Counted from the stretch's first letter, positions 522 through 62,498 are shown. The stretch: 62,606 bases of DNA from Parcubacteria group bacterium Greene0416_39 (GCA_007375675.1 VMEU01000004.1:1-62606); one strand, 5' to 3'. Notes: generated by a model not told the origin, from the letters alone. Numbers and translations are program-made.

Positions 522-2316
522 TGTTGTCTGCGCAGTCATTCTTGCTGCAGCAACAGGTTTGTTTGTGCTCCCGGGAGCGGCGAGGGCGGCCTTGAACACT
601 ACGTTGTATATCCAAGGGCCGGGGGGATCTATACTCGTGAATACCCCACTTGTTGTTCCAGAAAGCTGCACCGTGGAGGACAATGTCGGAGCAACACATA
701 ATTTTTCTGGACACCGCGCCCCTTGCGCGATTAAGGCAGCAAAAGACACAGGGCTCATTTCAGATTTTCTGTTTAAGGATTTTGGAGGACTTGGACTTTT
801 CTTAGACCGCGTGAACAGCATTGCGTCAGGTCCAGCTCCAGATTACCCGTACTGGAACTTGTGGCGCAACAGCGTGGTTTCTGAAGTCGGTATCAGCCAG
901 ATTACCCTTTCCAATGGCGACGCTTTTCAGCTCACGTATGGGCCCGATAAGACAGCAATCATCCAGGGAGGCAGTGTGACGCAGTCAGCAGGAGGGCCTG
1001 TGGTTACGGATGTATATCCAAGAAAGTTTGACGTGGAAAGCGCCGTATCTTTTTTGGTGGCAAGCCAACAACAGAATGGTTCTTTTGGCCATCCCCTCTT
1101 TACTGATTGGGCAGCGGTAGCTCTGGGTGCGTACAAAGGAAAGAGCGCAACAGCGAGCGCTGCAAAAGAAGAGCTTCGAGAATGGCTCGTAGCAAACTCA
1201 GTTCCAGAGGGCAGTGTGCTCACCGATTACGAGAGGCGGGCAATGGCATTGATGTCTTTAGGTATTGACCCATATTCTGGAACCAGCCAAAACATCATTG
1301 AAACTATTGTTGCCGGGTTTGACGGCCAGCAGTTTGGAAACCCTGGTTTGGTGAATGATGATATCTTTGCTGTTCTGGTTCTGCAAAAGGCAGGATATGA
1401 GGCAAACGTGACCCCCTTACTAGAAACCCTTCCTTTTATTCTTTCGTGGCAAAGGGAAAGCGGTTCCTTTGGAAGTGTTGACCTTACCGCAGCTGCGGTG
1501 CAGACATTGTCATTGTTTCCTGGAAGCGAACAGAGAAACAAAGCTCTATTGAAAGCTCGTGACTATCTTGCGGGGCAACAGGAAAGCACTGGCGGATTTG
1601 GGAATGTGTATTCTACAGCTTGGGTCTTGCAGGCGATTGCCTCGCTCAATGAAGATGGTGACGGTTGGGCAATGGAGGTTGATAAGAGAACCCCTGAGCA
1701 TTTCCTTGCGCTCCGCCAGGCATTAGATGGAGGATTGCTGCAGGCAGAATCAAAGGAGAATCGTATCTGGGCAACTTCCTATGCAATTCCTGCCGCGCTT
1801 CAAAAAGGGTGGGGCAAAGTGCTGGTTGCATTTCCAAGACCAGTGCTTGTGCAGGCACCAATAATTGCAAGCACTCATTTGGAGCAGGCAGCGGCGCAAG
1901 AACTACAGGTTCAGCTGGACGCCATTGCAGAGGAAGCTCGTTTGCTTACTCTGCAGGTTGTGAGCTTGGAGCTTCAGAAGGTGCGTACACAGGTTGCGCT
2001 GCTGGAGCCCCGCGTGCTTGTGTACCTTCGGGACATCTCCCGTATGGAGACATTTGCGGAGTCTGCAGATGCAAGAAACTTAGTTTCCAAGAACGAAGAA
2101 ACTAAGTTTCTCAGTACGCTGCAAGAGTCTCTTGTAACTGTGGAGCCTATTGTTGGATCAGAGTTTTCTGCAGGCATAGGGGGAGCAACAAAACAACTTC
2201 CCTGGCAAAATGTCCTTCCCTACGTTGTGGCTGGAGGAGTACTGGCCTTCTTGCTTTTTGGGAATCCCAAAGGCATACTCTCATTTTTACAGGGCCGCTT
2301 GAGTAAAGTAGGTTAG
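505..2316 (+). CDS. Surface prenyltransferase/squalene-cyclase-repeat (alpha-alpha toroid) protein with coiled coil and C-terminal TM anchor
   Basis: The internal ATG at 505 gives a signal peptide (MEMRNSVVCAVILAAATGLFVLPGAARA). Repeated QxxxG(S/G)FG motifs are present (QQQNGSFG, WQRESGSFG, GQQESTGGFG). The C-terminal helix LPYVVAGGVLAFLLF is hydrophobic. Confidence 0.65.
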   Translation: MEMRNSVVCAVILAAATGLFVLPGAARAALNTTLYIQGPGGSILVNTPLVVPESCTVEDNVGATHNFSGHRAPCAIKAAKDTGLISDFLFKDFGGLGLFLDRVNSIASGPAPDYPYWNLWRNSVVSEVGISQITLSNGDAFQLTYGPDKTAIIQGGSVTQSAGGPVVTDVYPRKFDVESAVSFLVASQQQNGSFGHPLFTDWAAVALGAYKGKSATASAAKEELREWLVANSVPEGSVLTDYERRAMALMSLGIDPYSGTSQNIIETIVAGFDGQQFGNPGLVNDDIFAVLVLQKAGYEANVTPLLETLPFILSWQRESGSFGSVDLTAAAVQTLSLFPGSEQRNKALLKARDYLAGQQESTGGFGNVYSTAWVLQAIASLNEDGDGWAMEVDKRTPEHFLALRQALDGGLLQAESKENRIWATSYAIPAALQKGWGKVLVAFPRPVLVQAPIIASTHLEQAAAQELQVQLDAIAEEARLLTLQVVSLELQKVRTQVALLEPRVLVYLRDISRMETFAESADARNLVSKNEETKFLSTLQESLVTVEPIVGSEFSAGIGGATKQLPWQNVLPYVVAGGVLAFLLFGNPKGILSFLQGRLSKVG

Positions 2317-2333: not shown

Positions 2334-2771
2334 ATGATATATCTGGGAGCGGATCACGCAGGCTTTGGATTGAAAGAGGAGATAAAAAAATATCTCAAAG
2401 AGCAAAGGAAAGAGGTTGAGGACCTGGGCGTTTTTGAGTTGAATGCAGATGATGATTATCCCGACTTCATTGCTCCTGTTGCGAAAAAGGTTGCTGAAAA
2501 CCTAGAACAAAACAAAGGGATCGTGCTTGGGGGATCTGGGCAGGGCGAGGCGATTGTTGCAAACAAAGTAAAAGGAATCAGGGCAGCCGTGTATTATGGC
2601 GGGCCGCTTGAAATTGTAGAATTGTCACGTCAGCACAACAACGCAAACATTCTCTCGCTTGGAGCACGATTTCTTACTGCGGACCAGGCAAAAGAAGCGG
2701 CTCTTGCATTTCTTGAAACCGCTTTTGATGGAGGTCGCCACAAGAGAAGAATAGAAAAAATTGATCCATGA
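2334..2771 (+). CDS. rpiB: Ribose-5-phosphate isomerase B
   Basis: MIYLGADHAGFGLKEEIKKYL... and GSGQGEAIVANK match the RpiB/LacAB family. Length is 145 aa. Confidence 0.9.
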   Translation: MIYLGADHAGFGLKEEIKKYLKEQRKEVEDLGVFELNADDDYPDFIAPVAKKVAENLEQNKGIVLGGSGQGEAIVANKVKGIRAAVYYGGPLEIVELSRQHNNANILSLGARFLTADQAKEAALAFLETAFDGGRHKRRIEKIDP

Positions 2772-3439
2772 CACAAAAAGTTATTCCAGCAATTCTCACT
2801 TCAGATCCTGAAGATTTGAGAGCAAAACTCCAGCTTTTCAAAGCGGAGTCTGAATGGATGCACATTGATATTATGGACGGAAAATTTGTTTCCAACGTTT
2901 CGGTTTCAGTGCGAGACCTCCTCGCCCCAGAGGGGCGGGGAAAAGATTTTCGTTTGGAGATTCACCTCATGGTGCAAAATCCCCAAGCATATCTTAAAGA
3001 TTGTCTCGCTACGCGAGATCCCGCGAAGCGGGACAAAGACCGAGGAGTAGGACGCATAATTGTCCACCAAGAAGCCACTGGAGATATAAGAAAGGCGCTT
3101 CGGGAAATGAAGGCATATGGTTTGGAGGTAGGCATTGCTTTAAATCCTGCAACCCCTATTAATGTGCTTGCCCTGCACGCTAACGACGTTGCCTCTGTGC
3201 TTATCATGGGAGTGACTCCGGGGCTTCAAGGCCAAGAGTTTATGCCCTCGGTGCTTGAGAAAATCCCAGCTATCAAAAAAGATTTCCCTCACCTGCAAAT
3301 TGGGGTTGACGGGGGAGTGGGGGAAGAAAATATCTCCACCATTTTTCAAGCTGGAGCAGACTATGCGGTCGTGGGAAGCAAGATTTTTGCCACCCAAGAT
3401 CCCGTAGAAGCTTTCAAGAAATTGGAAGAAATGTTATGA
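2768..3439 (+). CDS. rpe: Ribulose-phosphate 3-epimerase
   Basis: Contains the HIDIMDGKFVSN, HLMV and GVDGGV motifs. Its start overlaps the rpiB stop. It carries the 30-nt double-hairpin insert at 3004-3033. Confidence 0.9.
   Translation: MTQKVIPAILTSDPEDLRAKLQLFKAESEWMHIDIMDGKFVSNVSVSVRDLLAPEGRGKDFRLEIHLMVQNPQAYLKDCLATRDPAKRDKDRGVGRIIVHQEATGDIRKALREMKAYGLEVGIALNPATPINVLALHANDVASVLIMGVTPGLQGQEFMPSVLEKIPAIKKDFPHLQIGVDGGVGEENISTIFQAGADYAVVGSKIFATQDPVEAFKKLEEML
3004..3033. repeat. 30-nt tandem double hairpin inside rpe
   Basis: TCTCGC-TAC-GCGAGA followed directly by TCCCGC-GAA-GCGGGA. Confidence 0.85.
3398..3415 (+). repeat. Direct repeat (rpe 3' end), left copy
   Basis: GATCCCGTAGAAGCTTTC, identical to 3899-3916. 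Confidence 0.9.
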
Positions 3440-3441
3440 TT

Positions 3442-3493
3442 ACAAAACAAAAAGCAAAGCACCCAACTAAGCAAGATTCGTCGTTGGGTGCTT
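3442..3493 (-). terminator. Terminator of the minus-strand small membrane protein gene
   Basis: AAGCACCCAAC-15 nt-GTTGGGTGCTT. On the minus strand it is followed by TGCTTTTTGTTTTG. Confidence 0.6.
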
Positions 3494-3515
3494 ACGGAAG
3501 GTTTGTTGTAAAAGA

Positions 3516-3815
3516 TTACCTTCCCTTACCTCTGTGTTTCCACGGTTTTGTGAGTACCATTGTAGCAACTACAAATAATACTGCACTTACCGCTAACAAT
3601 ACTACGGATTTTTGGACATCAGGGTTGATGGGGAGTTCTCTGACGCCACTGGGGCCCGTTCGGAATCTGTCGTAATCGTTACCGATCATTGAGTAGATGC
3701 CCCAGATGAAGCCCGCGAGCACGCCTAGGCCGGCGATACTCATTACGCCGCCGAGAAGTTTCTCACGACTCGTCCACTTGGTCCACTGAGTCCTCATGAT
3801 CTTTCTGATCCTCAT
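3516..3815 (-). CDS. Small two-helix membrane protein (hypothetical)
   Basis: Two hydrophobic segments. GGAGGG lies ~8 nt upstream of the ATG on the minus strand, and a terminator hairpin follows downstream. The gene lies inside the ~500-bp insertion. Confidence 0.55.
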   Translation of the reverse strand: MRIRKIMRTQWTKWTSREKLLGGVMSIAGLGVLAGFIWGIYSMIGNDYDRFRTGPSGVRELPINPDVQKSVVLLAVSAVLFVVATMVLTKPWKHRGKGR

Positions 3816-3898
3816 TTTTTACCCTCCTGAGATATCCTATAAAGATTATACACTATAATATAAAAATGTCAAGTACGCTGGAAAAAGCTTATACGATA

Positions 3899-3943
3899 GA
3901 TCCCGTAGAAGCTTTCTGCAAGCTTCAAGAGATGGTATCCTAA
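3899..3943 (+). other. Relic duplicate of the rpe 3' end (DPVEAFCKLQEMVS*)
   Basis: An 18-nt perfect repeat plus a diverged tail, compared with the live tail DPVEAFKKLEEML*. Its TAA lies 8 nt before the tkt ATG. Confidence 0.7.
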
Positions 3944-3951
3944 TTCAACAT

Positions 3952-4833
3952 ATGCAAAAGCAGTATTCTCTGAAAGAACTGGAGAAAAAGGCGAACGAGA
4001 TACGGCAAGATATTATTAAAATGCTTGTCGTAGCAGGGTCTGGGCACTCGGCAGGCCCTTTGGGCATGGCAGATATTTTTACTGCTTTGTACTTTAAGGT
4101 ATTGAGGCATGACCCCAAACGCCCTAATTGGAAAGAGAGGGATCGTCTTATTCTTTCCAACGGCCACATCTGCCCTGTTCGATATACGGCAATGGCGCAT
4201 GCAGGATATTTCTCGAAGAATTGGCTTTCAACCTTTCGTACAATTGGTTCAAAACTAGAAGGGCATCCCTCTTTTAAGAAAATTTCCGCTTTAGAGACTA
4301 CATCAGGCCCCCTGGGAGAAGGACTCTCGGAGGCGTGTGGCTTTGCGTTAGCTGCAAAAATAGACAAAGCAACCTACCACATTTGGTGCTTACTGTCTGA
4401 CGGGGAACATCAAGAAGGCATGACCTGGGAAGCAGCAATGCTTGCCAGCAAGTACCGACTGAACAATCTCACCTGTATTATTGATCGGAACAACATTCAG
4501 ATTGATGGGTATACGGAAGATATTATGCCTTTGGAACCCTTGCGTGAAAAGTACGAGGCATTCGGCTGGCATGTTATTGATATGAACGGCCACGACATTC
4601 AAGAAATTATCTCAACCTTAGAAGAAGCAAAGGCAGTTGCAGAAAAACCCGTATGCATTATTGCCCACACCATTCCAGGGAAAGGAGTTTCTTTCATGGA
4701 AAAGGATTACAAGTGGCACGGCGTTCCTCCGGGAACCGATATTCCAGGCGAACCTCCAAAGGCGGAACAGGCAAAGATTGCGTTGCGCGAACTCCGCACT
4801 TTGCAAGGGAAAATCGAGTCAGAGTTGGATTAA
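3952..4833 (+). CDS. tkt: Transketolase, N-terminal (TPP-binding) subunit
   Basis: GSGHSAGPLGMADI and LSDGEHQEG motifs. This is the N-terminal half of a split transketolase. Confidence 0.9.
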   Translation: MQKQYSLKELEKKANEIRQDIIKMLVVAGSGHSAGPLGMADIFTALYFKVLRHDPKRPNWKERDRLILSNGHICPVRYTAMAHAGYFSKNWLSTFRTIGSKLEGHPSFKKISALETTSGPLGEGLSEACGFALAAKIDKATYHIWCLLSDGEHQEGMTWEAAMLASKYRLNNLTCIIDRNNIQIDGYTEDIMPLEPLREKYEAFGWHVIDMNGHDIQEIISTLEEAKAVAEKPVCIIAHTIPGKGVSFMEKDYKWHGVPPGTDIPGEPPKAEQAKIALRELRTLQGKIESELD

Positions 4834-4858
4834 TCCTTAGCTCGGTTAAGGAAACAGT

Positions 4859-5833
4859 ATGAATTACTATTTTGCAAAACATTATCTAAACGAAACAAAA
4901 GTGGAATGGAAACCCATGCGCGACGGGGCTGGCATTGGCATGGCAGAATTGGGAGAAACCAAGAAAGATATGGTGGTGTTGGGAGCAGATACCACAGAGT
5001 CTTCAAGGGCTCATTATTTTGCCCAAAAATTTCCAGAGCGCTTCATCCAGGTTGGGGTAGCAGAGCAGAACATGATTGGCATTGCTGCGGGGCTTTCTTA
5101 TCAAGGCAAGGTTCCCTACGCGGTCACATACGCCGCCTTTCTAATAGGAAGACCGTGGGAACCCATACGAACCACCATTGCATACCCTGAACGGCACGTG
5201 GTGTTTGTGTCTTCTCATGCAGGGCTTGCCACAGGTCCTGACGGCCCTACCCACCAAATGACAGAAGATATTGCCATTACGAGGTGCCTGCCCGGATTTA
5301 CCGTGATTGCTCCTTGTGATTTTGAGCAGGCGAGAAAGGCAGTGAAAGCAGCATATTCTTTGAAGGGGCCGGTCTATATAAGGAACTGCAGAGAAAAAAC
5401 GCCCGTGTTCACTACCGACAAAACGCCTTTTGAAGTAGGCAAAGCGCAGATATTGCGTGAAGGTAAAGATGTTACCGTCATTGGCCATGGGTATATGGTG
5501 TACTGGCTTTTGCAGATTGCAGAAGAACTAAAAAAGAAAATCTCCATTGAAGTTATTAACCTGCACACCATAAAGCCGTTGGACGGCAAGACGATTCTGC
5601 AATCAACAAAGAAAACAAAAAGGGTGTTTTGTGCAGAAGACCACAATGTCATAGGCGGCATGGGCAGCGCAGTTGCAGAGTTTCTCTCTGAAACATATCC
5701 AGTCCCCATGAAACTCCACGGCGTCTATGATACTTTTGCAGAATCGGGCTCTGTGAAAGATCTCTGGAAAAAGTATGGCCTCGACAAAGAAGGAACAAAG
5801 AAAGTTCTTTTAGAATTTCTAAAAAAGGTATGA
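4859..5833 (+). CDS. tkt: Transketolase, C-terminal (pyrimidine-binding) subunit
   Basis: GVAEQNMIGIAAGL and GPTHQMTEDIA motifs. It follows the N-terminal half directly. Confidence 0.9.
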   Translation: MNYYFAKHYLNETKVEWKPMRDGAGIGMAELGETKKDMVVLGADTTESSRAHYFAQKFPERFIQVGVAEQNMIGIAAGLSYQGKVPYAVTYAAFLIGRPWEPIRTTIAYPERHVVFVSSHAGLATGPDGPTHQMTEDIAITRCLPGFTVIAPCDFEQARKAVKAAYSLKGPVYIRNCREKTPVFTTDKTPFEVGKAQILREGKDVTVIGHGYMVYWLLQIAEELKKKISIEVINLHTIKPLDGKTILQSTKKTKRVFCAEDHNVIGGMGSAVAEFLSETYPVPMKLHGVYDTFAESGSVKDLWKKYGLDKEGTKKVLLEFLKKV

Positions 5834-6837
5834 AACCAAAGTTTGATCTTATATCGGTGGGGGATACGCAGTATGACGTGTTTCTTGAATTGGAAGAGGA
5901 AACAAAGATTCTCCGTGATGAACAGGAGCAGAGAGACTACTTAGGATTGGTGTTTGCTGAGAAAATCCCGGTACAATCATATACTGCAGTTCCTGCGGTG
6001 GGGAACTCGGTCAACGTTGCGATTGGAGCCTCTCGTCTTGGCCTGAAGACTGCCCTCTATACTGTCTTGGGAGATGATCGCGTGGGGAAAGAGGAACTTG
6101 AGATCTTTAAAAAAGAAAAGGTTTCCACAGACTACATTGCGTGGGACAAAAAGCGCGGGAGCAATTTTTCTGCAGTGCTCAATTACAAAGGAGAAAGAAC
6201 CATTCTGGTGTTTCACGAACCAAGAGATTACAACCTTCCCAAGTTAGCTCCTGCAAGGTTTTTGTACTACAGCTCGCTTGCTAAAGATCACGAGAAGCTC
6301 CATACGCAAATTCCTTCATACATCAAAAAATCTGGAGCAAAGCTTGTGTTTAATCCAGGAAGCCATCAGTTAAAAGAAGGTCTTTCAGTTCTCCAGCCCA
6401 TTTTACAGGTGACCTCTGTATTTTTGGTAAACAAAGAAGAAGCGCAAGAGCTTCTTGGCACAACAGAACAGGATGTGAAAATACTTTTGGAGCTTTTATC
6501 CCGCTGCGCGGGATCCCGCGAAGCGGGACAAGGGCCTGAAATTGTGGTAATCACAGATGATGGCAAGGGATCCCATTGTTTTGACGGCACGAATTTCTAT
6601 CACTTGGATATTTTTCGCGTTCCAGTGAAAGAAATGACAGGAGCGGGAGACGCGTATTCTACTGGATTTGTGAGCGCCCTCGCATATGGAAATAACGTTA
6701 AAGAGGCAATGCGTTGGGGAGCAGTGAACGGAGCGTCTGTTATTCAAAAGATTGGCGCTCGAGAGGGTCTCTTGAGAAAAGACGAGATGGAAAAGATGCT
6801 GCAAGAAAATCCTGGGTTTCAGCCCATTATCATATAA
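5830..6837 (+). CDS. PfkB-family carbohydrate kinase
   Basis: Ribokinase-like layout with a C-terminal TGAGDAY motif. It carries the 30-nt double-hairpin insert at 6499-6528. Confidence 0.8.
   Translation: MKPKFDLISVGDTQYDVFLELEEETKILRDEQEQRDYLGLVFAEKIPVQSYTAVPAVGNSVNVAIGASRLGLKTALYTVLGDDRVGKEELEIFKKEKVSTDYIAWDKKRGSNFSAVLNYKGERTILVFHEPRDYNLPKLAPARFLYYSSLAKDHEKLHTQIPSYIKKSGAKLVFNPGSHQLKEGLSVLQPILQVTSVFLVNKEEAQELLGTTEQDVKILLELLSRCAGSREAGQGPEIVVITDDGKGSHCFDGTNFYHLDIFRVPVKEMTGAGDAYSTGFVSALAYGNNVKEAMRWGAVNGASVIQKIGAREGLLRKDEMEKMLQENPGFQPIII
6499..6528. repeat. 30-nt tandem double hairpin inside pfkB-family gene
   Basis: TCCCGC-TGC-GCGGGA followed directly by TCCCGC-GAA-GCGGGA. Confidence 0.85.
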
Positions 6838-8498: not shown

Positions 8499-10643
8499 AT
8501 GAGAATACTACTCTTTGTAAGCTTAGTTGCGGCAAGTTTCTTTGGCTTTGCTTTTTTTGTTTCTGCAAGTTCTCCTTTTGATATCACCTTTCCAATCCCA
8601 GAGCTTGGCAACTGCCAAGATCAGGCAGGGTGCAAGGCCTTTTGTGATAACTTTGCCAATAAAGATGCGTGCATTGCCTTTGCCCAAAAACATGGGTTAG
8701 CAAGCGACGAACAGGTAGAAGAAGTAAGGAACCTGCCTGCCGTTGGGCCTGGCGGATGCCAGAGTGAATCAGAGTGCCGGGCCTACTGTGACGACTCAAA
8801 TAATGTGGAAGAATGCCTTGCTTTTGCCCAAGAGCATGGCCTTATTAGTAAAGAAAAAGTAGAGAAGACAAGAGAATTTATCAAAAGCGGCCCTGGCGGG
8901 TGCAAAGGGCCAAAGGAGTGCCGTGCATATTGCGAGGATGCGAGCAATCAAGATGAGTGTTTCGCGTTTGCAGAAGAACATAACTTAATCCCCAAAGAAG
9001 AGCTTGAGCGAGGCCGGGCACTTTCAAAACAAGGCGGGCCTGGAGGATGCAAGAGCGAGCAAGAGTGCCGCGCGTATTGCCAAGACCCTACCCATACAGA
9101 GGAATGCTTGGATTCTGCAGTAAAGCTTGGGATGCTGAGCGAAGAACAAGCAAAGAGAATTAAAAAAGCAGCGGTGTTAGGCGGCCCAGGAGGCTGCAAA
9201 GGAGAGGAGTGCCGCACATACTGTGAAGACCCTGCTCATCAGACAGAATGCATTGCGTTTGCAGAGGAGAATGGGTTTATGTCTCCAGAAGATGCTGCGC
9301 GAGCAAGGAAATTTGCAGGCAAAGAGGGTCCAGGAGGGTGTAAAGGAGAACAATGCCGAACGTTTTGTGAGAGTCCAGGCAATGAACAAGCATGTCTTGA
9401 ATTTGCAGAAAGAGAAGGATTAATGCCAGCTGAAGAAGTTGCAAGAGCAAGGAAGTTTCTCACGGTTTCTGAGCAAGGAGGGCCAGGGGGATGCAGAGGT
9501 ATTGAATGCCGGGGCTACTGTCAAGATCCTGCTCATCAGGATGAATGTTTTCAGTTTGCAAAAGGCAACGGACTTCTTCGCGCAGAAGACGAACAGAATT
9601 TTGAAGCAGGCAAGAAACTTCAAAAGGTGGTGCAGGAGTCTGGAGGCCCTGGAGGATGCAAGTCAGACCAAGAATGCCAGGCCTACTGTTCAGATCCTAG
9701 CCATGGAGAAGAATGTATAGCATTTGGTGCGACGCACGGAGGTATTCCAGAAGAAGAAGTACGCAAGATGCTCAAGGAGTTTACCGAGGAGAGACATTCA
9801 GGCCCTGGAGAGTTTCGTCCCTCAGGGGATTTCAGGCGCTTTGAAGAAGAATCCCAGAAACGATTTGAAGAGTTTAGGCAGTTGGAGCACCAGTTCCGCG
9901 GGAAAGAGTTTCCCGCCCAGGGCGGGCCCGCCTTTGGCGGGGGCCCAGGCCAACCAACAGGCCCCGCTAACTTTGCGGGTCCTGGCGGTTGCACTTCTCC
10001 TTCAGAATGTATCAAGTATTGTACCGAGCACAAAGAAGAATGCTTTAGTTTTGGTCCTCCTGGTAAGCCTGGCACTACGCCTCCAGAAGGTGGTATCCCC
10101 CCTGGCCGTGAGTTTGGGCCTCCCAAGCCAGAACAAACTCAACAGTTCCAGCAGTTCAAAAACGAAGGAGATAAGAGAGAATTGTTCAAACAAAAGTTTG
10201 AGGAGTTTAAGCCCCCAGAAGGATTCAAACCTCCAGAAGGTTTCCATCCTCCTGATAGGTCTCAGATAAAAGAATCTATTCCACAAGATAGTCGTGCAGC
10301 AGCCTGTACTGGAGAGGGAGGGGTTTGGGATGGAACCACGTGTCGGCCGCCCAAAGAACCTACTCAATTCTTCCCTGAAGGAGGATTCCCGCAACAACAA
10401 ACCGAGCGACAAGTCCAGCAACAAATGCTTGAACAGCAGATTCAACAGCAAGTACAGCAGGTGCAACAGCTTCAGCTGCAGCAACAACAGCAGCAGCAGA
10501 TTCAACCTCCTGCTCAGCAATTTTTCCCGAGTTCAGGAGGAACCTCTACTCCTCCACCTAGTTTTACCCCGCCACCGAGTACCCCTCCAGCAGGAGGTTC
10601 CATCATTGACGCAGTTCGCTCATTCCTCAGGCTCAAGCCTTAG
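8499..10643 (+). CDS. Secreted cysteine-rich repeat protein (9 x ~48-aa four-Cys units) with Gln/Pro-rich tail
   Basis: Signal/TM at the N-terminus. Nine GPGGCxxxxECxxYCxDxxxxxEC(I/L)xFAxxxG units. The tail is poly-Q (QQLQLQQQQQQQIQ) then Pro-rich. Confidence 0.75.
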   Translation: MRILLFVSLVAASFFGFAFFVSASSPFDITFPIPELGNCQDQAGCKAFCDNFANKDACIAFAQKHGLASDEQVEEVRNLPAVGPGGCQSESECRAYCDDSNNVEECLAFAQEHGLISKEKVEKTREFIKSGPGGCKGPKECRAYCEDASNQDECFAFAEEHNLIPKEELERGRALSKQGGPGGCKSEQECRAYCQDPTHTEECLDSAVKLGMLSEEQAKRIKKAAVLGGPGGCKGEECRTYCEDPAHQTECIAFAEENGFMSPEDAARARKFAGKEGPGGCKGEQCRTFCESPGNEQACLEFAEREGLMPAEEVARARKFLTVSEQGGPGGCRGIECRGYCQDPAHQDECFQFAKGNGLLRAEDEQNFEAGKKLQKVVQESGGPGGCKSDQECQAYCSDPSHGEECIAFGATHGGIPEEEVRKMLKEFTEERHSGPGEFRPSGDFRRFEEESQKRFEEFRQLEHQFRGKEFPAQGGPAFGGGPGQPTGPANFAGPGGCTSPSECIKYCTEHKEECFSFGPPGKPGTTPPEGGIPPGREFGPPKPEQTQQFQQFKNEGDKRELFKQKFEEFKPPEGFKPPEGFHPPDRSQIKESIPQDSRAAACTGEGGVWDGTTCRPPKEPTQFFPEGGFPQQQTERQVQQQMLEQQIQQQVQQVQQLQLQQQQQQQIQPPAQQFFPSSGGTSTPPPSFTPPPSTPPAGGSIIDAVRSFLRLKP
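8607..10089 (+). repeat. Coding tandem repeats (nine four-Cys units)
   Basis: GGCCC(T/A)GG(A/C)GG(A/G)TGC... recurs about every 140-150 nt. Confidence 0.8.
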
Positions 10644-10645
10644 TC

Positions 10646-11608
10646 ATGCCTTTTCAGCTTTTCTATCTTCTTTCGTTTCTCGCGCTTCCTGTATGGACGT
10701 TGAGTTTCGGTTCTCTGGTTTTTCAGTTTATTGAAAGAATGCTCCCGGATGCCTTGTCTTATGGGTACGGGGGAGGTTTTGCTTTCGGTGCCCTGAAAAA
10801 TGTTGTCGCTTCACTTATCATCGCGTTTCCCTTGTACCTATTTTTGATGTGGCAGCTTTGGAAAGGCGCCAAGGTGCATCCAGAACAACTCCAATCTCTG
10901 GTTCGGAAATGGTTCACCTATATTGTCCTTGTTGTGGTCGCAGGAGTCATTCTCGGAGATCTCATCGCGTTACTTACCAGTTTTTTGGGAGGAGAGTTGG
11001 CATTACGGTTTTCTCTCAAGGCGTTGAGCATTCTTGCAATCTCAGCAAGCATTTTTGGCTACTATTTTTTTGAACTCAAAAGGAGCGGCGTCTCTCTATT
11101 CCCAAGAGGACTAAAGGTTTTTGTTGGGGCCGTTATTCTCCTCGTTCTTCTTGCAACCGTGTACGCATTTTCTGTTATGGGAAGTCCAGGCAAACAGCGC
11201 GCCCTTCAGTTTGACCAGCGCCGTGCATCAGACATTCAGCAGATTTCCTATGCAATAGATAGCTACTGGGAGAGAAACAAAAAACTCCCCTTAAGCTTTG
11301 AAGAACTCAAGACTCAACCATATTTATACATTCAGTCAGTAAAAGATCCCAAAACCCAAGAGCTCTATGAGTACCAGGTCTTGGAAGACAAAAAGTATGA
11401 GCTTTGTGCGGTGTTTGAAACTGATTCAGGTGAATACAAACAGAGAGCAAAAGTTCAAACTCCGTTTTCTGAAGAAATATGGAACCATGGTATCGGGCGA
11501 ACCTGTTTTGAAAAAGAAGCGCAGTCTTCTCGAAACGATAAAGAGCTCCAGTTTCTGAACGCCCCTGTTCAAATTCCTGCAAGCCCTGTTCCAGCAAGAG
11601 CTTTTTGA
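10646..11608 (+). CDS. Multi-pass membrane protein, DUF5671-like N-terminus with pseudopilin-like C-terminal domain
   Basis: About 5 TM helices, then QRRASDIQQISYAIDSYWERNKKLP...YEYQVLEDKKYELCAVFE. Family assignment is from memory only. Confidence 0.55.
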   Translation: MPFQLFYLLSFLALPVWTLSFGSLVFQFIERMLPDALSYGYGGGFAFGALKNVVASLIIAFPLYLFLMWQLWKGAKVHPEQLQSLVRKWFTYIVLVVVAGVILGDLIALLTSFLGGELALRFSLKALSILAISASIFGYYFFELKRSGVSLFPRGLKVFVGAVILLVLLATVYAFSVMGSPGKQRALQFDQRRASDIQQISYAIDSYWERNKKLPLSFEELKTQPYLYIQSVKDPKTQELYEYQVLEDKKYELCAVFETDSGEYKQRAKVQTPFSEEIWNHGIGRTCFEKEAQSSRNDKELQFLNAPVQIPASPVPARAF

Positions 11609-12643: not shown

Positions 12644-12664
12644 TACAAAGGTCCGTCCTTTGTA
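12644..12664. repeat. REP-like hairpin TACAAAGG-TCCGT-CCTTTGTA (copy 1)
   Basis: Perfect 8-bp stem with a 5-nt loop, directly downstream of the transposase stop. Confidence 0.85.
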
Positions 12665-12665
12665 G

Positions 12666-13319
12666 TTATTCGAGGAGGAGAGAGGCAATATCTTTTGGAT
12701 ATTCTTCTAGCTCTTCTACAAAAACTTTATATTCTTGTTGCGGAAATTTTTGAGAAAAGAAAGCAAATATTTCATTCGTATCTACCCAATCTTGTTTTCT
12801 CTTTCCTAGATAGTTTGGGTAGCTCGAGTACGGATAACTACACAAAGGTCCGTCCTTTGCAAGTAGTTCTTTGGGATTTTGGTGTATGTATTTTGATACA
12901 TATACAAATTGTTCATCTCTTTCTATTAAAACTGCTTTGTATCTTCCTTGGAAAAGCGGGCCTACCCGTTGATATGTTCTATTAAAATATCCTGAGTAAC
13001 TTGTTGCAAGAGCTCTCATAAATTTTTCCATCCCCCTCTCCACGAGATTTTTTATCAGCAGATGGAAGTGGTTTGGCATAAGGCAATATGCCAAAAGGTG
13101 TACTTGCTTATTGCAATTTAGTGGTTTTCTTCGAGGGATTATCTCTTTAGGATTTTTGAGATCCTGGTGTTCTGGCGGGAGCAAGTATTCTTTGAGAAAA
13201 TAAAGAAAGGTCCTATAGTCTTTTTCGGTAGGAAAGATGTTTTGCTTTGCTACTCCACGATTATAAATATGGTAGTACCCGCCCTCCACAAAGCTCTTTA
13301 TTACATTTTTTGCAGGCAT
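12666..13319 (-). CDS. IS200/RAYT-like Y1 (HuH) transposase
   Basis: HuH motif (MPNHFHLLI) and YIHQNP tyrosine motif. Start taken at MPAKN (13319). Flanked by CAAAGG-TCCGT-CCTTTG hairpins. Confidence 0.8.
   Translation of the reverse strand: MPAKNVIKSFVEGGYYHIYNRGVAKQNIFPTEKDYRTFLYFLKEYLLPPEHQDLKNPKEIIPRRKPLNCNKQVHLLAYCLMPNHFHLLIKNLVERGMEKFMRALATSYSGYFNRTYQRVGPLFQGRYKAVLIERDEQFVYVSKYIHQNPKELLAKDGPLCSYPYSSYPNYLGKRKQDWVDTNEIFAFFSQKFPQQEYKVFVEELEEYPKDIASLLLE
12836..12866. repeat. REP-like hairpin (copy 2, inside transposase CDS)
   Basis: AACTAC-A-CAAAGG-TCCGT-CCTTTG-CAA-GTAGTT. It encodes ...AKDGPLC... on the minus strand. Confidence 0.8.
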
Positions 13320-13376
13320 ATCTTGAGGTGAATATATGAACTCTGATATAATAATATAAGATATAAGAGGATTATG

Positions 13377-13393
13377 CAAAGGTCCGTCCTTTG
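13377..13393. repeat. REP-like hairpin CAAAGG-TCCGT-CCTTTG (copy 3)
   Basis: Identical 17-mer located between the transposase start and the ASCH gene. Confidence 0.85.
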
Positions 13394-55323: not shown

Positions 55324-56096
55324 AAAGGCCACTTATTATTGCCAATTGGAAGATGCGTCCTGGAAATTCAAAGGAAGCGTTTGATTTGGCCAAGGCCGTT
55401 GCGAAGGGAGTAGAGGATCTTGAAGCAGACGTGGTATTGTGCCCGCCTTTTGTGTATATTTCAGACATCGTTAGAGCGTCCTCCTTCGCTCGTCAACAGA
55501 CGAGCTATGGAGGATCCTCCGTAGCCCTTCGGTCTGAGGCCTCAGGATCGAAGACCTTCGGCGTAGGAGGACAGGATTGTTTCTGGGAACAGGAAGGGCC
55601 GTATACAGGAGAGGTTTCTCCAGTGATGCTGCGCAACCTTGGATGCACCCATGTTATTCTTGGGCATTCGGAACGCAAACGGTATCTCAATGAAACCGCA
55701 GAAATGGTGAACGCAAAAATAAAAGCAGTTCTTCAGCAAGGGTTGATTCCGGTAGTATGCGTAGATGAGCCAGAACAGAATCTTGAGCTGCTTCTCAAAG
55801 GTATTTCGCAATCGGAATTGAAAAACAGCGTGTTGGTGTATGAACCTGCATGGGCAATCAGTACTTCCCATGGGCAGGCTGCAACACCAAAACTACTGAA
55901 AGAAACAGCTGCGTTTATGAAAAAATTTATTCCAGCCCAAACTCCTATTCTTTACGGTGGCAGCGTGGAGAGCAGGAATATCAAAAGCTTTCTCGGCCCT
56001 GAACTTGGTCAGGGAGTATTGGTTGGGGGAGCTTCGCTTCAGGCAAAGGAGTTTGTTACCCTTGTAAAGAATGCTTCTATTGCTCTTGCCCCGTAG
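55320..56096 (+). CDS. tpiA: Triose-phosphate isomerase with ~25-aa hairpin-encoded insertion
   Basis: IIANWKM, GHSERK and YEPAWAISTS. The insertion SFARQQTSYGGSSVALRSEASGSKT is encoded at about 55485-55560. Confidence 0.92.
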   Translation: MKRPLIIANWKMRPGNSKEAFDLAKAVAKGVEDLEADVVLCPPFVYISDIVRASSFARQQTSYGGSSVALRSEASGSKTFGVGGQDCFWEQEGPYTGEVSPVMLRNLGCTHVILGHSERKRYLNETAEMVNAKIKAVLQQGLIPVVCVDEPEQNLELLLKGISQSELKNSVLVYEPAWAISTSHGQAATPKLLKETAAFMKKFIPAQTPILYGGSVESRNIKSFLGPELGQGVLVGGASLQAKEFVTLVKNASIALAP

Positions 56097-56151
56097 TGAA
56101 ATTTGGACCAAACTTCGTTTGCTGAAAGCAGTCCAAATTCTACTACGGGGC
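56088..56151. repeat. TIR hairpin element, short copy (64 nt)
   Basis: GCCCCGTAGTGAAATTTGGAC - 22 nt - GTCCAAATTCTACTACGGGGC, with 19/21 complementary. The tpiA TAG stop lies in the left arm. Confidence 0.8.
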
Positions 56152-62355: not shown

Positions 62356-62498
62356 GCCCCGTAGTGAAAATTTGAAATGATTTCAGTAATGCCTACAGGG
62401 CAAGGTTATGAAAATAAATCATCACACAACAAAAAAGGTTTTGCTCAAGAATAAAGCCAGAAATCATAAGGGCATTATTCAAATTTCTACTACGGGGC
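62356..62498. repeat. TIR element, long copy (143 nt)
   Basis: GCCCCGTAGTGAAAATTTGAA ... TTCAAATTTCTACTACGGGGC. The termini match those of the 56088 copy. Confidence 0.75.

Follow-up and report, generated by a model that had tools for sequence, protein, structure and literature searches.

Two in-frame 30-nt palindromic cassettes in a Parcubacteria contig and the family of miniature selfish repeats to which they probably belong

How do two unrelated genes of one genome come to carry, in frame, almost the same 30-nt palindrome? The question is raised by a 62,606-nt stretch of DNA from Parcubacteria group bacterium Greene0416_39 (GCA_007375675.1, VMEU01000004.1:1-62606), here referred to as the window, which is Parcubacteria-type DNA of the Candidate Phyla Radiation (CPR) from an uncultured groundwater organism. 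The palindrome, here referred to as the cassette, lies in rpe (2768..3439, + strand), which encodes a ribulose-phosphate 3-epimerase of 223 aa (Pfam PF00834, E = 2.5e-46), and in the gene of a 335-aa PfkB-family sugar kinase (5830..6837, + strand; Pfam PF00294, E = 2.9e-33), referred to as pfkB. The two cassettes are probably copies of a family of miniature selfish palindromic repeats. The cassette spreads by copying into new sites and not by local mutation, and copies landing in surface loops or protein N-termini survive as 10-residue inserts, those of rpe and pfkB included.

Two cassettes and their empty sites

The rpe cassette (3004..3033, + strand) consists of TCTCGC-TAC-GCGAGA followed by TCCCGC-GAA-GCGGGA, is flanked by TTG and CAA, and is read as (C)LATRDPAKRD. 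The pfkB cassette (6499..6528, + strand) consists of TCCCGC-TGC-GCGGGA followed by TCCCGC-GAA-GCGGGA and is read as SRCAGSREAG. An original prediction, made from the sequence alone, had reported both, and re-reading of the sequence returned the same coordinates and letters. It was also right that hairpin 2 is the same in both cassettes, that hairpin 1 differs by a paired change (T3-A13 in rpe vs C3-G13 in pfkB) and that the two are read in different phases. The likeness between them reaches 38 nt (3001-3038 vs 6496-6533, with 5 mismatches) and takes in TT(G/A) upstream and CAA downstream of the cassettes. A degenerate pattern describing both matched these two sites of the window and no others, and it gave 0 matches in dinucleotide-preserving shuffles of the window (n=100).

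On comparison with homologues and with a syntenic relative whose sites are empty, both cassettes are derived insertions. This relative, the contig L001, shares ~88% nucleotide identity with the window in rpe and pfkB. At the rpe site L001 and L003 read GATTGT/AAAG (a slash marks the insertion point), and the window has 30 nt between GATTGT and AAAG, a clean gain; no target duplication was found at this cassette when the window was compared with L001 and L003. The ten residues are absent from 19/19 aligned Rpe homologues, and likewise from rice Rpe (1H1Y). At the pfkB site 30 nt of the window replace 6 nt (CGAAAA in L001), and ten residues stand where L001 has two (RK) and L123 has two (KS). 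Each cassette had been described as ten codons long; rpe does gain exactly 10, and the net gain of pfkB is 8, because its 10-codon cassette replaces 2 ancestral codons. The alignment of orthologues thus supports net insertions of 10 aa in rpe and 8 aa in pfkB.

The AlphaFold2 model of Rpe is confident (mean pLDDT, the predicted local distance difference test, 93.2) and places the insert in a coil (residues 82-92) between a helix (72-81) and a strand (93-100). This is the alpha3-beta4 loop, and it forms the least confident block of the model, which agrees with the predicted location in a loop and with the view that proteins tolerate the insert. Alignment to PDB structures places the pfkB insert in the loop before the VVIT strand. 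Directly 3′ of the rpe cassette, six codons (3034-3051) encode KDRGVG where all homologues have KAVGA(S/G/A), and these codons are far more diverged than the remainder of rpe.

Spread, anatomy and placement of the cassette

The pattern TCYCGC-N3-GCGRGA-TCCCGC-N3-GCGGGA was searched in GTDB contigs, with one genome per species. At least 119 stretches matched, vs ~0.02 expected by chance (an estimate), and the majority of them lie in Patescibacteria/CPR. The CPR hosts among the matches listed are Saccharibacteria, Paceibacterota and Jorgensen-, Doudna-, Magasanik-, Staskawicz-, Kuenen-, Collier-, Azam- and Gribaldobacteria; the non-CPR hosts among them are metagenome-assembled genomes (MAGs) of Lentisphaeria and Kiritimatiellae, Ignavibacteria, some MAGs labelled Gammaproteobacteria and the isolate Aquincola. 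Many matched loci come from single Lentisphaeria and Kiritimatiellae MAGs, with several dispersed copies per genome. The exact rpe 30-mer recurs in mnmA of a Jorgensenbacterium (L021), in rpoC of an Azambacterium (L081) and in L099; uvrC of another Parcubacterium (L008) has a near-identical 30-mer, and a GH3 gene of the relative L123 has a one-mismatch copy of the rpe-type cassette. That the same 30-mer or near variants occur between genes and, in other lineages, inside unrelated genes fits the mobile or templated insert that had been proposed from the two window copies. A phage origin was rejected, as the pattern had no match in 2.9 million IMG/VR viral contigs. A comparison of the family with Rfam 15 found only tRNAs in 18 cassette-bearing loci, and nothing relevant to the cassette sequence itself or to palindromic insertions in CPR was found in the searched literature.

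The unit of the cassette is a 15-nt GC-rich stem-loop, TCnnnC-NNN-GnnnGA, with a 6-bp stem and a 3-nt loop, and two such units in inverted order, head-to-head (HH) or tail-to-tail (TT), make up the element with zero spacer; 258/296 units are in doublets, in a scan that was seeded on doublets. The two stem-loops of the predicted double hairpin are therefore present, as parts of an inverted doublet with dyad symmetry and not as two independent RNA hairpins. Units start with TC and end with GA, and no GTAG or CGTC tag was found at their ends, GTAG appearing only by accident when the loop is GTA. Other compensated stems of the same geometry in the fetched loci are TCCGCC, TCCGGC, TCTGGC, TCCAGC and TCCTGC. 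At the stem position left free by the search pattern (Y3/R13) we counted C-G 86 times, T-A 35 times and a mispair 3 times. This test alone is unbiased, because the other counts come from a cassette alignment with members chosen for their pairing and are thus partly circular; among 94 distinct cassettes, 99.3% of the cells pair in the two-hairpin fold vs 87.2% in a single long hairpin, the pairing of which is broken by heterodimers. The compensated stems suggest that the inserting machinery would recognise a folded strand or a cruciform.

The two-hairpin fold is the minimum free energy (MFE) structure, as DNA, of 87/129 cassettes. For the bare 30-mer it is the MFE structure of the rpe cassette, not of the pfkB cassette, and with the TTG/CAA flanks the best fold of both is one long hairpin. 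Hairpin stability ranges from -11.5 to -15.7 kcal/mol as DNA and from -22 to -23 kcal/mol as RNA (z ~ -5); GCGNAGC has been described as an unusually stable DNA mini-hairpin (PMC13037366). The loops are paired as well: 73/129 cassettes have one purine-type loop (RNA in degenerate code, often GNA) and one TNY loop, in the order RNA+TNY in 45 and TNY+RNA in 28, with RNA+RNA in 0 and TNY+TNY in 1. The middle base of the loop is free, being complementary in 31/129, which is chance level. Owing to this loop rule the two strands look the same, one asymmetric unit being present twice in inverted order; the rule matches the HH/TT-only arrangement of dimers of repetitive extragenic palindromic (REP) sequences (PMC3733652).

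In CPR, taken with the unclassified group, 50/81 cassettes (~60%) lie in frame within open frames of at least 150 aa, and in the Planctomycetes-Verrucomicrobia-Chlamydiae (PVC) group 8/38 lie in open frames of that length. The host proteins include UvrA, UvrB, UvrC, RadA, RpoC, MnmA, MetK, TsaD, KsgA, NuoF and LepA. All three phases are in use, giving SRxAGSRxAG, PAxRDPAxRD and xPxxGIPxxG, and 100/129 cassettes are stop-free in all six frames vs 42% of random 30-mers of the same composition. Copies in every frame, on both strands and outside genes, with compensated stem changes, bear out the earlier suggestion that conservation acts at the level of nucleotides or structure.

TG adjoins the cassette on 77/258 sides, about five times the 6% background, and 12/129 cassettes, rpe among them (GATTG/CAAAG), have TG/../CA on both sides. 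The best-defined flanking context is YTG/CAA, with TTG as the commonest outer flank. Direct repeats of at least 6 nt abut 46/129 copies (for example GAAATTG/../GAAATTG). As direct repeats occur elsewhere and none at rpe, more than one insertion mode, or a longer form of the element, may exist. In Lentisphaeria (L020, L087, L113 and other loci) a longer intergenic repeat has the cassette at its core and tandem GGATATT heptamers to either side; the copies sometimes follow one another in tandem, with a period of 80 nt. Similar A/T-rich heptamers with TTG at their end are frequent beside CPR copies. In several MAGs (L011, L015, L079, L103, L119, L122) scaffold gaps of 100 N are found near cassettes, and the palindromes may cause assembly breaks.

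Counting variants, the window holds four copies of cassette type (at 2021, 3004, 6499 and 9912), and it has 11 CCGC-N3-9-GCGG hairpins vs 0 in 30 kb of L001 and L003. The variant double hairpin at 9912..9941 (+ strand; CCCGCC-CAG-GGCGGG followed by CCCGCC-TTT-GGCGGG) has the 15+15 geometry and the CCCGC/GCGGG arms of the rpe and pfkB cassettes. It lies in the gene of a 714-aa repeat protein, and at its position L001 has the non-palindromic GGGGAGCAGGGAGAGTTTGGA, so that the window gains 8 aa. A decayed cassette in the gene of a 626-aa protein (2021..2050, + strand; TGTACC-TTC-GGGACA followed by TCTCCC-GTA-TGGAGA) is an older insertion, because it is common to the window and L001, with better pairing in L001. 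Inside rpe there is also a single GC-rich hairpin with a 9-bp stem (2920..2940, + strand; CCTCGCCCC-AGA-GGGGCGGGG), which adds 3 aa to Rpe, with LAPEGR in place of KEV, and encodes the second least confident block of the AlphaFold2 model. This hairpin is restricted to the window, L001 and L003, more distant homologues being without it, and looks like an older, separate palindromic insertion.

The gene of the 714-aa protein (8499-10643) encodes a signal-like N-terminus, about nine GPGGC-x-EC-x-YC cysteine repeats and Q/P-rich tails, shows no Pfam match and has a second hairpin at 9962-9984. A repeat resembling miniature inverted-repeat transposable elements (MITEs), with terminal inverted repeats GCCCCGTAGTGAAATTTGGAC and a variable centre, was found in the window at 56088-56151 and 62356-62498, in L210 at 9865-9945 and in L211 at 363-438; the centre of two copies, GTCTCGC-NNN-GCGAGAC, equals hairpin 1 of rpe. 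It moved recently, because one copy is in the sister strain L211 and none is at the same place in the strain of the window (L210 ~1636). Between rpe and the transketolase gene, L001 has a PhdYeFM antitoxin and PIN toxin pair (10681-11398); the matching interval of the window (3440-3950) has merely a 99-aa ORF on the minus strand and no PhdYeFM/PIN pair.

A candidate home locus and the rival explanations

At four cassette matches (L048, L053, L109 and L111) the cassette lies 15-50 nt upstream of an ORF encoding an 81-85-aa GIY-YIG nuclease (PF01541). Five further members of this CPR-wide GIY-YIG protein family were fetched, and 5/5 have a cassette within ~200 nt, which brings the total to 9/9 loci examined. 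The cassettes at these loci sit inside truncated tRNA-Cys copies, either in the anticodon loop (CTG/CAAA, between nucleotides 34 and 35) or in the D-loop; they occur in either orientation, and one is nested in another. An intact tRNA-Cys(GCA) follows the GIY-YIG ORF in 8/8 loci with sequence, and the 3′ end of the ORF overlaps the tRNA. The conserved arrangement of truncated tRNA-Cys with cassettes, GIY-YIG ORF of 80-85 aa and intact tRNA-Cys was found at L048, L053, L109, L215-L217, L220 and L221, and is often syntenic (infB-rbfA-...-tRNA-Cys-tRNA-Leu(taa)). In L053 a ~420-nt unit is bounded by identical GGTCTG-cassette-CAAAAC repeats. The rpe site, TTG/CAAA, resembles the anticodon-loop site CTG/CAAA. 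No description of a GIY-YIG gene with a tRNA-Cys locus was found in the searched literature.

The possibility that the cassette is a tRNA intron was rejected, as ARAGORN predicted no additional tRNA once the cassettes were removed from all loci, and as the tRNA-Cys pieces that carry cassettes are truncated. We also considered whether the diverged codons 3′ of the rpe cassette had been brought from the flank of a tRNA-Cys donor; ~4-6 nt are alike, which is not convincing. On one 114-kb contig (L165 and L216) a gene for a REP-associated tyrosine transposase (RAYT) lies ~2 kb from the GIY-YIG and tRNA-Cys cassette locus, which may be coincidence.

We infer that, in Patescibacteria, the truncated tRNA-Cys copies beside the small GIY-YIG gene and the intact tRNA-Cys are the home locus of the family. 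Such a locus would supply both template and nuclease for rare ectopic insertions of the cassette. Tentatively, the GIY-YIG nuclease would break TG/CA-like sites, and the cassette would then be copied from the home locus into the break by homing-like repair; we regard this route as possible, with the odds against it. More speculative still is a resident, hitherto undescribed Patescibacteria system, in which a mini GIY-YIG nuclease by tRNA-Cys, with decoy tRNA-Cys fragments holding the master 30-nt nested palindromes, would cut TG/CA sites in DNA hairpin loops; homing-like repair would then copy the palindrome into the breaks.

Several observations weigh against these proposals or against a mobile family as such. 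The enzyme that inserts the cassette was not found, neither a GIY-YIG gene nor tRNA-Cys is present in the window or in its 20-kb flanks, and GIY-YIG nucleases cut DNA but do not join it. Most cassettes have TG on one side only, and many copies of other lineages are abutted by 7-8-nt direct repeats, which are absent at the rpe site. Cassettes are sparse and unevenly distributed, a single GC-rich one being present in 478 kb of unrelated CPR contigs. No polymorphism of filled and empty sites was seen within one species, the contig of the sister strain ending inside rpe ~100 nt before the site. Finally, the loop triplets of the 9912 cassette, CAG and TTT, are already present in the empty L001 allele, which hints at in-situ conversion.

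The cassette could instead be an element of the REPIN type (REP doublet forming hairpins), moved as single-stranded DNA by a RAYT, a Y1 HUH transposase, such as the RAYT-like one encoded at 12668-13321 (- strand; PF01797, Y1_Tnp, E = 1.6e-10) in the window, homologues of which are annotated as RayT by some sources. Arrangement as an inverted hairpin doublet in HH/TT order only, the rpe site without target duplication and a one-sided TG preference, as in the IS200/IS605 family, are all in line with such a transposase, and L123 has both a RAYT 83% identical and an rpe-type cassette. The RAYT ORF of the window is, however, flanked by another hairpin, the 17-nt CAAAGGTCCGTCCTTTG (CAAAGG-TCCGT-CCTTTG), at 12646 and 13377 (region 12646-13393), with a third copy at 12843, in frame inside the transposase gene. 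In a test that covered one RAYT family, partial genomes and 80 metagenomic loci, the gene-side hairpins were mostly ..AGG-TCNGA/AGACT-CCT.. (on both sides in ~30 loci) and never TCCCGC, and the 478 kb of these loci hold a single GC-rich cassette. There is no RAYT in 920 kb around the 119 cassette matches listed, where few are expected anyway, the GTAG and CGTC tags are missing, and TTG-oriented cassettes show no bias relative to GC skew, that is, to the replication strand (20 vs 25). As the cognate hairpins differ, and RAYT genes and cassettes do not co-occur in the stretches covered, the RAYT of the window is not an evident driver, and insertion by an HUH/RAYT-like transposase is unlikely; the remaining probability falls to an agent other than this transposase or the GIY-YIG nuclease. 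L001 diverges from the window just before the RAYT region.

It is also very improbable that the cassette is a structured element with a function at its site, favoured there by selection, and acts as an mRNA hairpin pair (ribosome pausing, RNA decay) or as a useful peptide (SRxAG repeats). Stable hairpins (z ~ -5), covarying stems and the many copies at domain linkers or loops of conserved proteins speak for it, but copies have either orientation relative to the gene, use all three frames and also lie between genes, the dyad symmetry of the loops makes the strands equivalent, as is not expected of an RNA signal, the insert is missing from close relatives and all homologues, and no Rfam family matches. 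Hardly credible, finally, is that each palindrome formed at its own site (quasi-palindrome mutation by template switching, or fold-back repair) or is an assembly artefact, and that they are not copies of one element. The pre-existing loop triplets at 9912-9941 would suit a local origin, and the scaffold gaps and a contig end adjoining cassettes indicate that palindromes do disturb assemblies. Against both stand identical 30-mers in unrelated genes of distant lineages, assembled by different groups with different programs; the flanks of the empty rpe and pfkB sites show no relation to the cassette sequence, the insertions preserve the reading frame, the proteins model well, and the isolate genome of Aquincola carries cassettes too.

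Significance and comparison with known systems

In-frame palindromic elements are a known class, which includes Rickettsia palindromic elements (RPEs) and intragenic REPs (PMC3733652). Within the searched literature, the 30-nt form with zero spacer, the conservation across phyla, the CPR host range and the constant link to GIY-YIG genes and tRNA-Cys fragments appear to be new. The cassettes extend in-frame selfish palindromes to the CPR. To our knowledge, these have been known mainly from Rickettsia and a few REP-rich bacteria, and we know of none smaller than 30 nt. Since the cassette lies inside core genes (rpoC, uvrABC, radA, metK, tsaD, rpe), it affects annotation, alignment-based phylogeny and structure prediction in CPR. 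How REP-like elements move without an evident dedicated transposase is a long-standing question, for which the pairing of GIY-YIG nuclease and tRNA-Cys offers a concrete candidate. The more speculative resident system of Patescibacteria, if real, would amount to a nuclease-driven class of mini mobile element. It would keep adding 10-residue loops to essential proteins throughout a bacterial radiation, and some of the numerous lineage-specific insertions in CPR proteins could be due to it. The nuclease itself could be a compact tool enzyme, if it is site- or structure-specific.

As a doublet without a spacer, the cassette resembles a REP dimer, a bacterial interspersed mosaic element (BIME) or a REPIN, shrunk to 30 nt. 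REP dimers, BIMEs and REPINs (PMC3733652, PMC3116915) are likewise short GC-rich stem-loops in inverted doublets, HH or TT, with head-to-tail order avoided; they form homo- and heterodimers, and each partner can fold by itself, or both together into a single long hairpin. REPs and REP dimers inside genes have been described (PMC3733652), DNA-repair genes such as uvrA and uvrB being frequent hosts, and in-frame copies add 20-30 aa. The REPs of O. terrae and Wolbachia have partners only 1-2 bp apart, near the zero spacer of the cassette (PMC3733652). On the other hand, the unit of the cassette is 15 nt long vs 20-40 nt in REPs, it has neither spacer nor GTAG/CGTC tag, and no cognate RAYT was found, the RAYT present having other hairpins. 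Its stems, and even identical 30-mers, cross phylum-level lineages, whereas REPs are usually lineage-specific, and the CPR cassettes are mostly intragenic.

Mitochondrial double-hairpin elements, GC clusters and hairpin repeats (for example PMC2800124 and PMC4478555) are also small mobile GC-rich double hairpins of AT-richer genomes, sometimes in coding or rRNA sequence; being unrelated in sequence and found in organelles of fungi, sponges and algae, they provide an analogy only. Palindrome-associated transposable elements (PATEs) derived from IS200/IS605, and other MITEs, share with the cassette a non-autonomous nature, end hairpins and insertion beside a short specific sequence with no duplication, as at the rpe site. 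The 30-nt cassette is, however, too small for guide and cleavage sequences, and 7-8-nt direct repeats are not expected for IS200/IS605. Classic MITEs combine terminal inverted repeats with a target site duplication; here the whole cassette is itself a palindrome, the rpe site has no duplication, and direct repeats of at least 6 nt abut 46/129 copies.

Free-standing GIY-YIG endonuclease genes take part in collaborative or intronless homing in T4-like phages. As in homing, a small nuclease gene adjoins a short insert that interrupts an apparent natural target, the tRNA-Cys anticodon loop, and dispersed cassettes stand at target-like sites (TG/CAA). The protein beside the cassette differs in being only 80-85 aa long, with no DNA-binding domain, and the locus looks resident and not invasive, because it is syntenic across CPR (infB-rbfA-...-tRNA-Cys-tRNA-Leu).

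The last comparison is with the RPEs, of which RPE-1, at ~100-150 bp, is far longer than the 30-nt cassette. RPEs are confined to Rickettsia and have other sequences, and no tRNA or nuclease locus is known to be linked to them. Nevertheless, they are selfish palindromes that a reduced genome carries in frame within its housekeeping genes, where the protein fold tolerates them (Ogata et al. 2000, via PMC3733652), and the cassettes behave in the same way, as they lie in frame in conserved genes, at tolerated sites, and are absent from orthologues.

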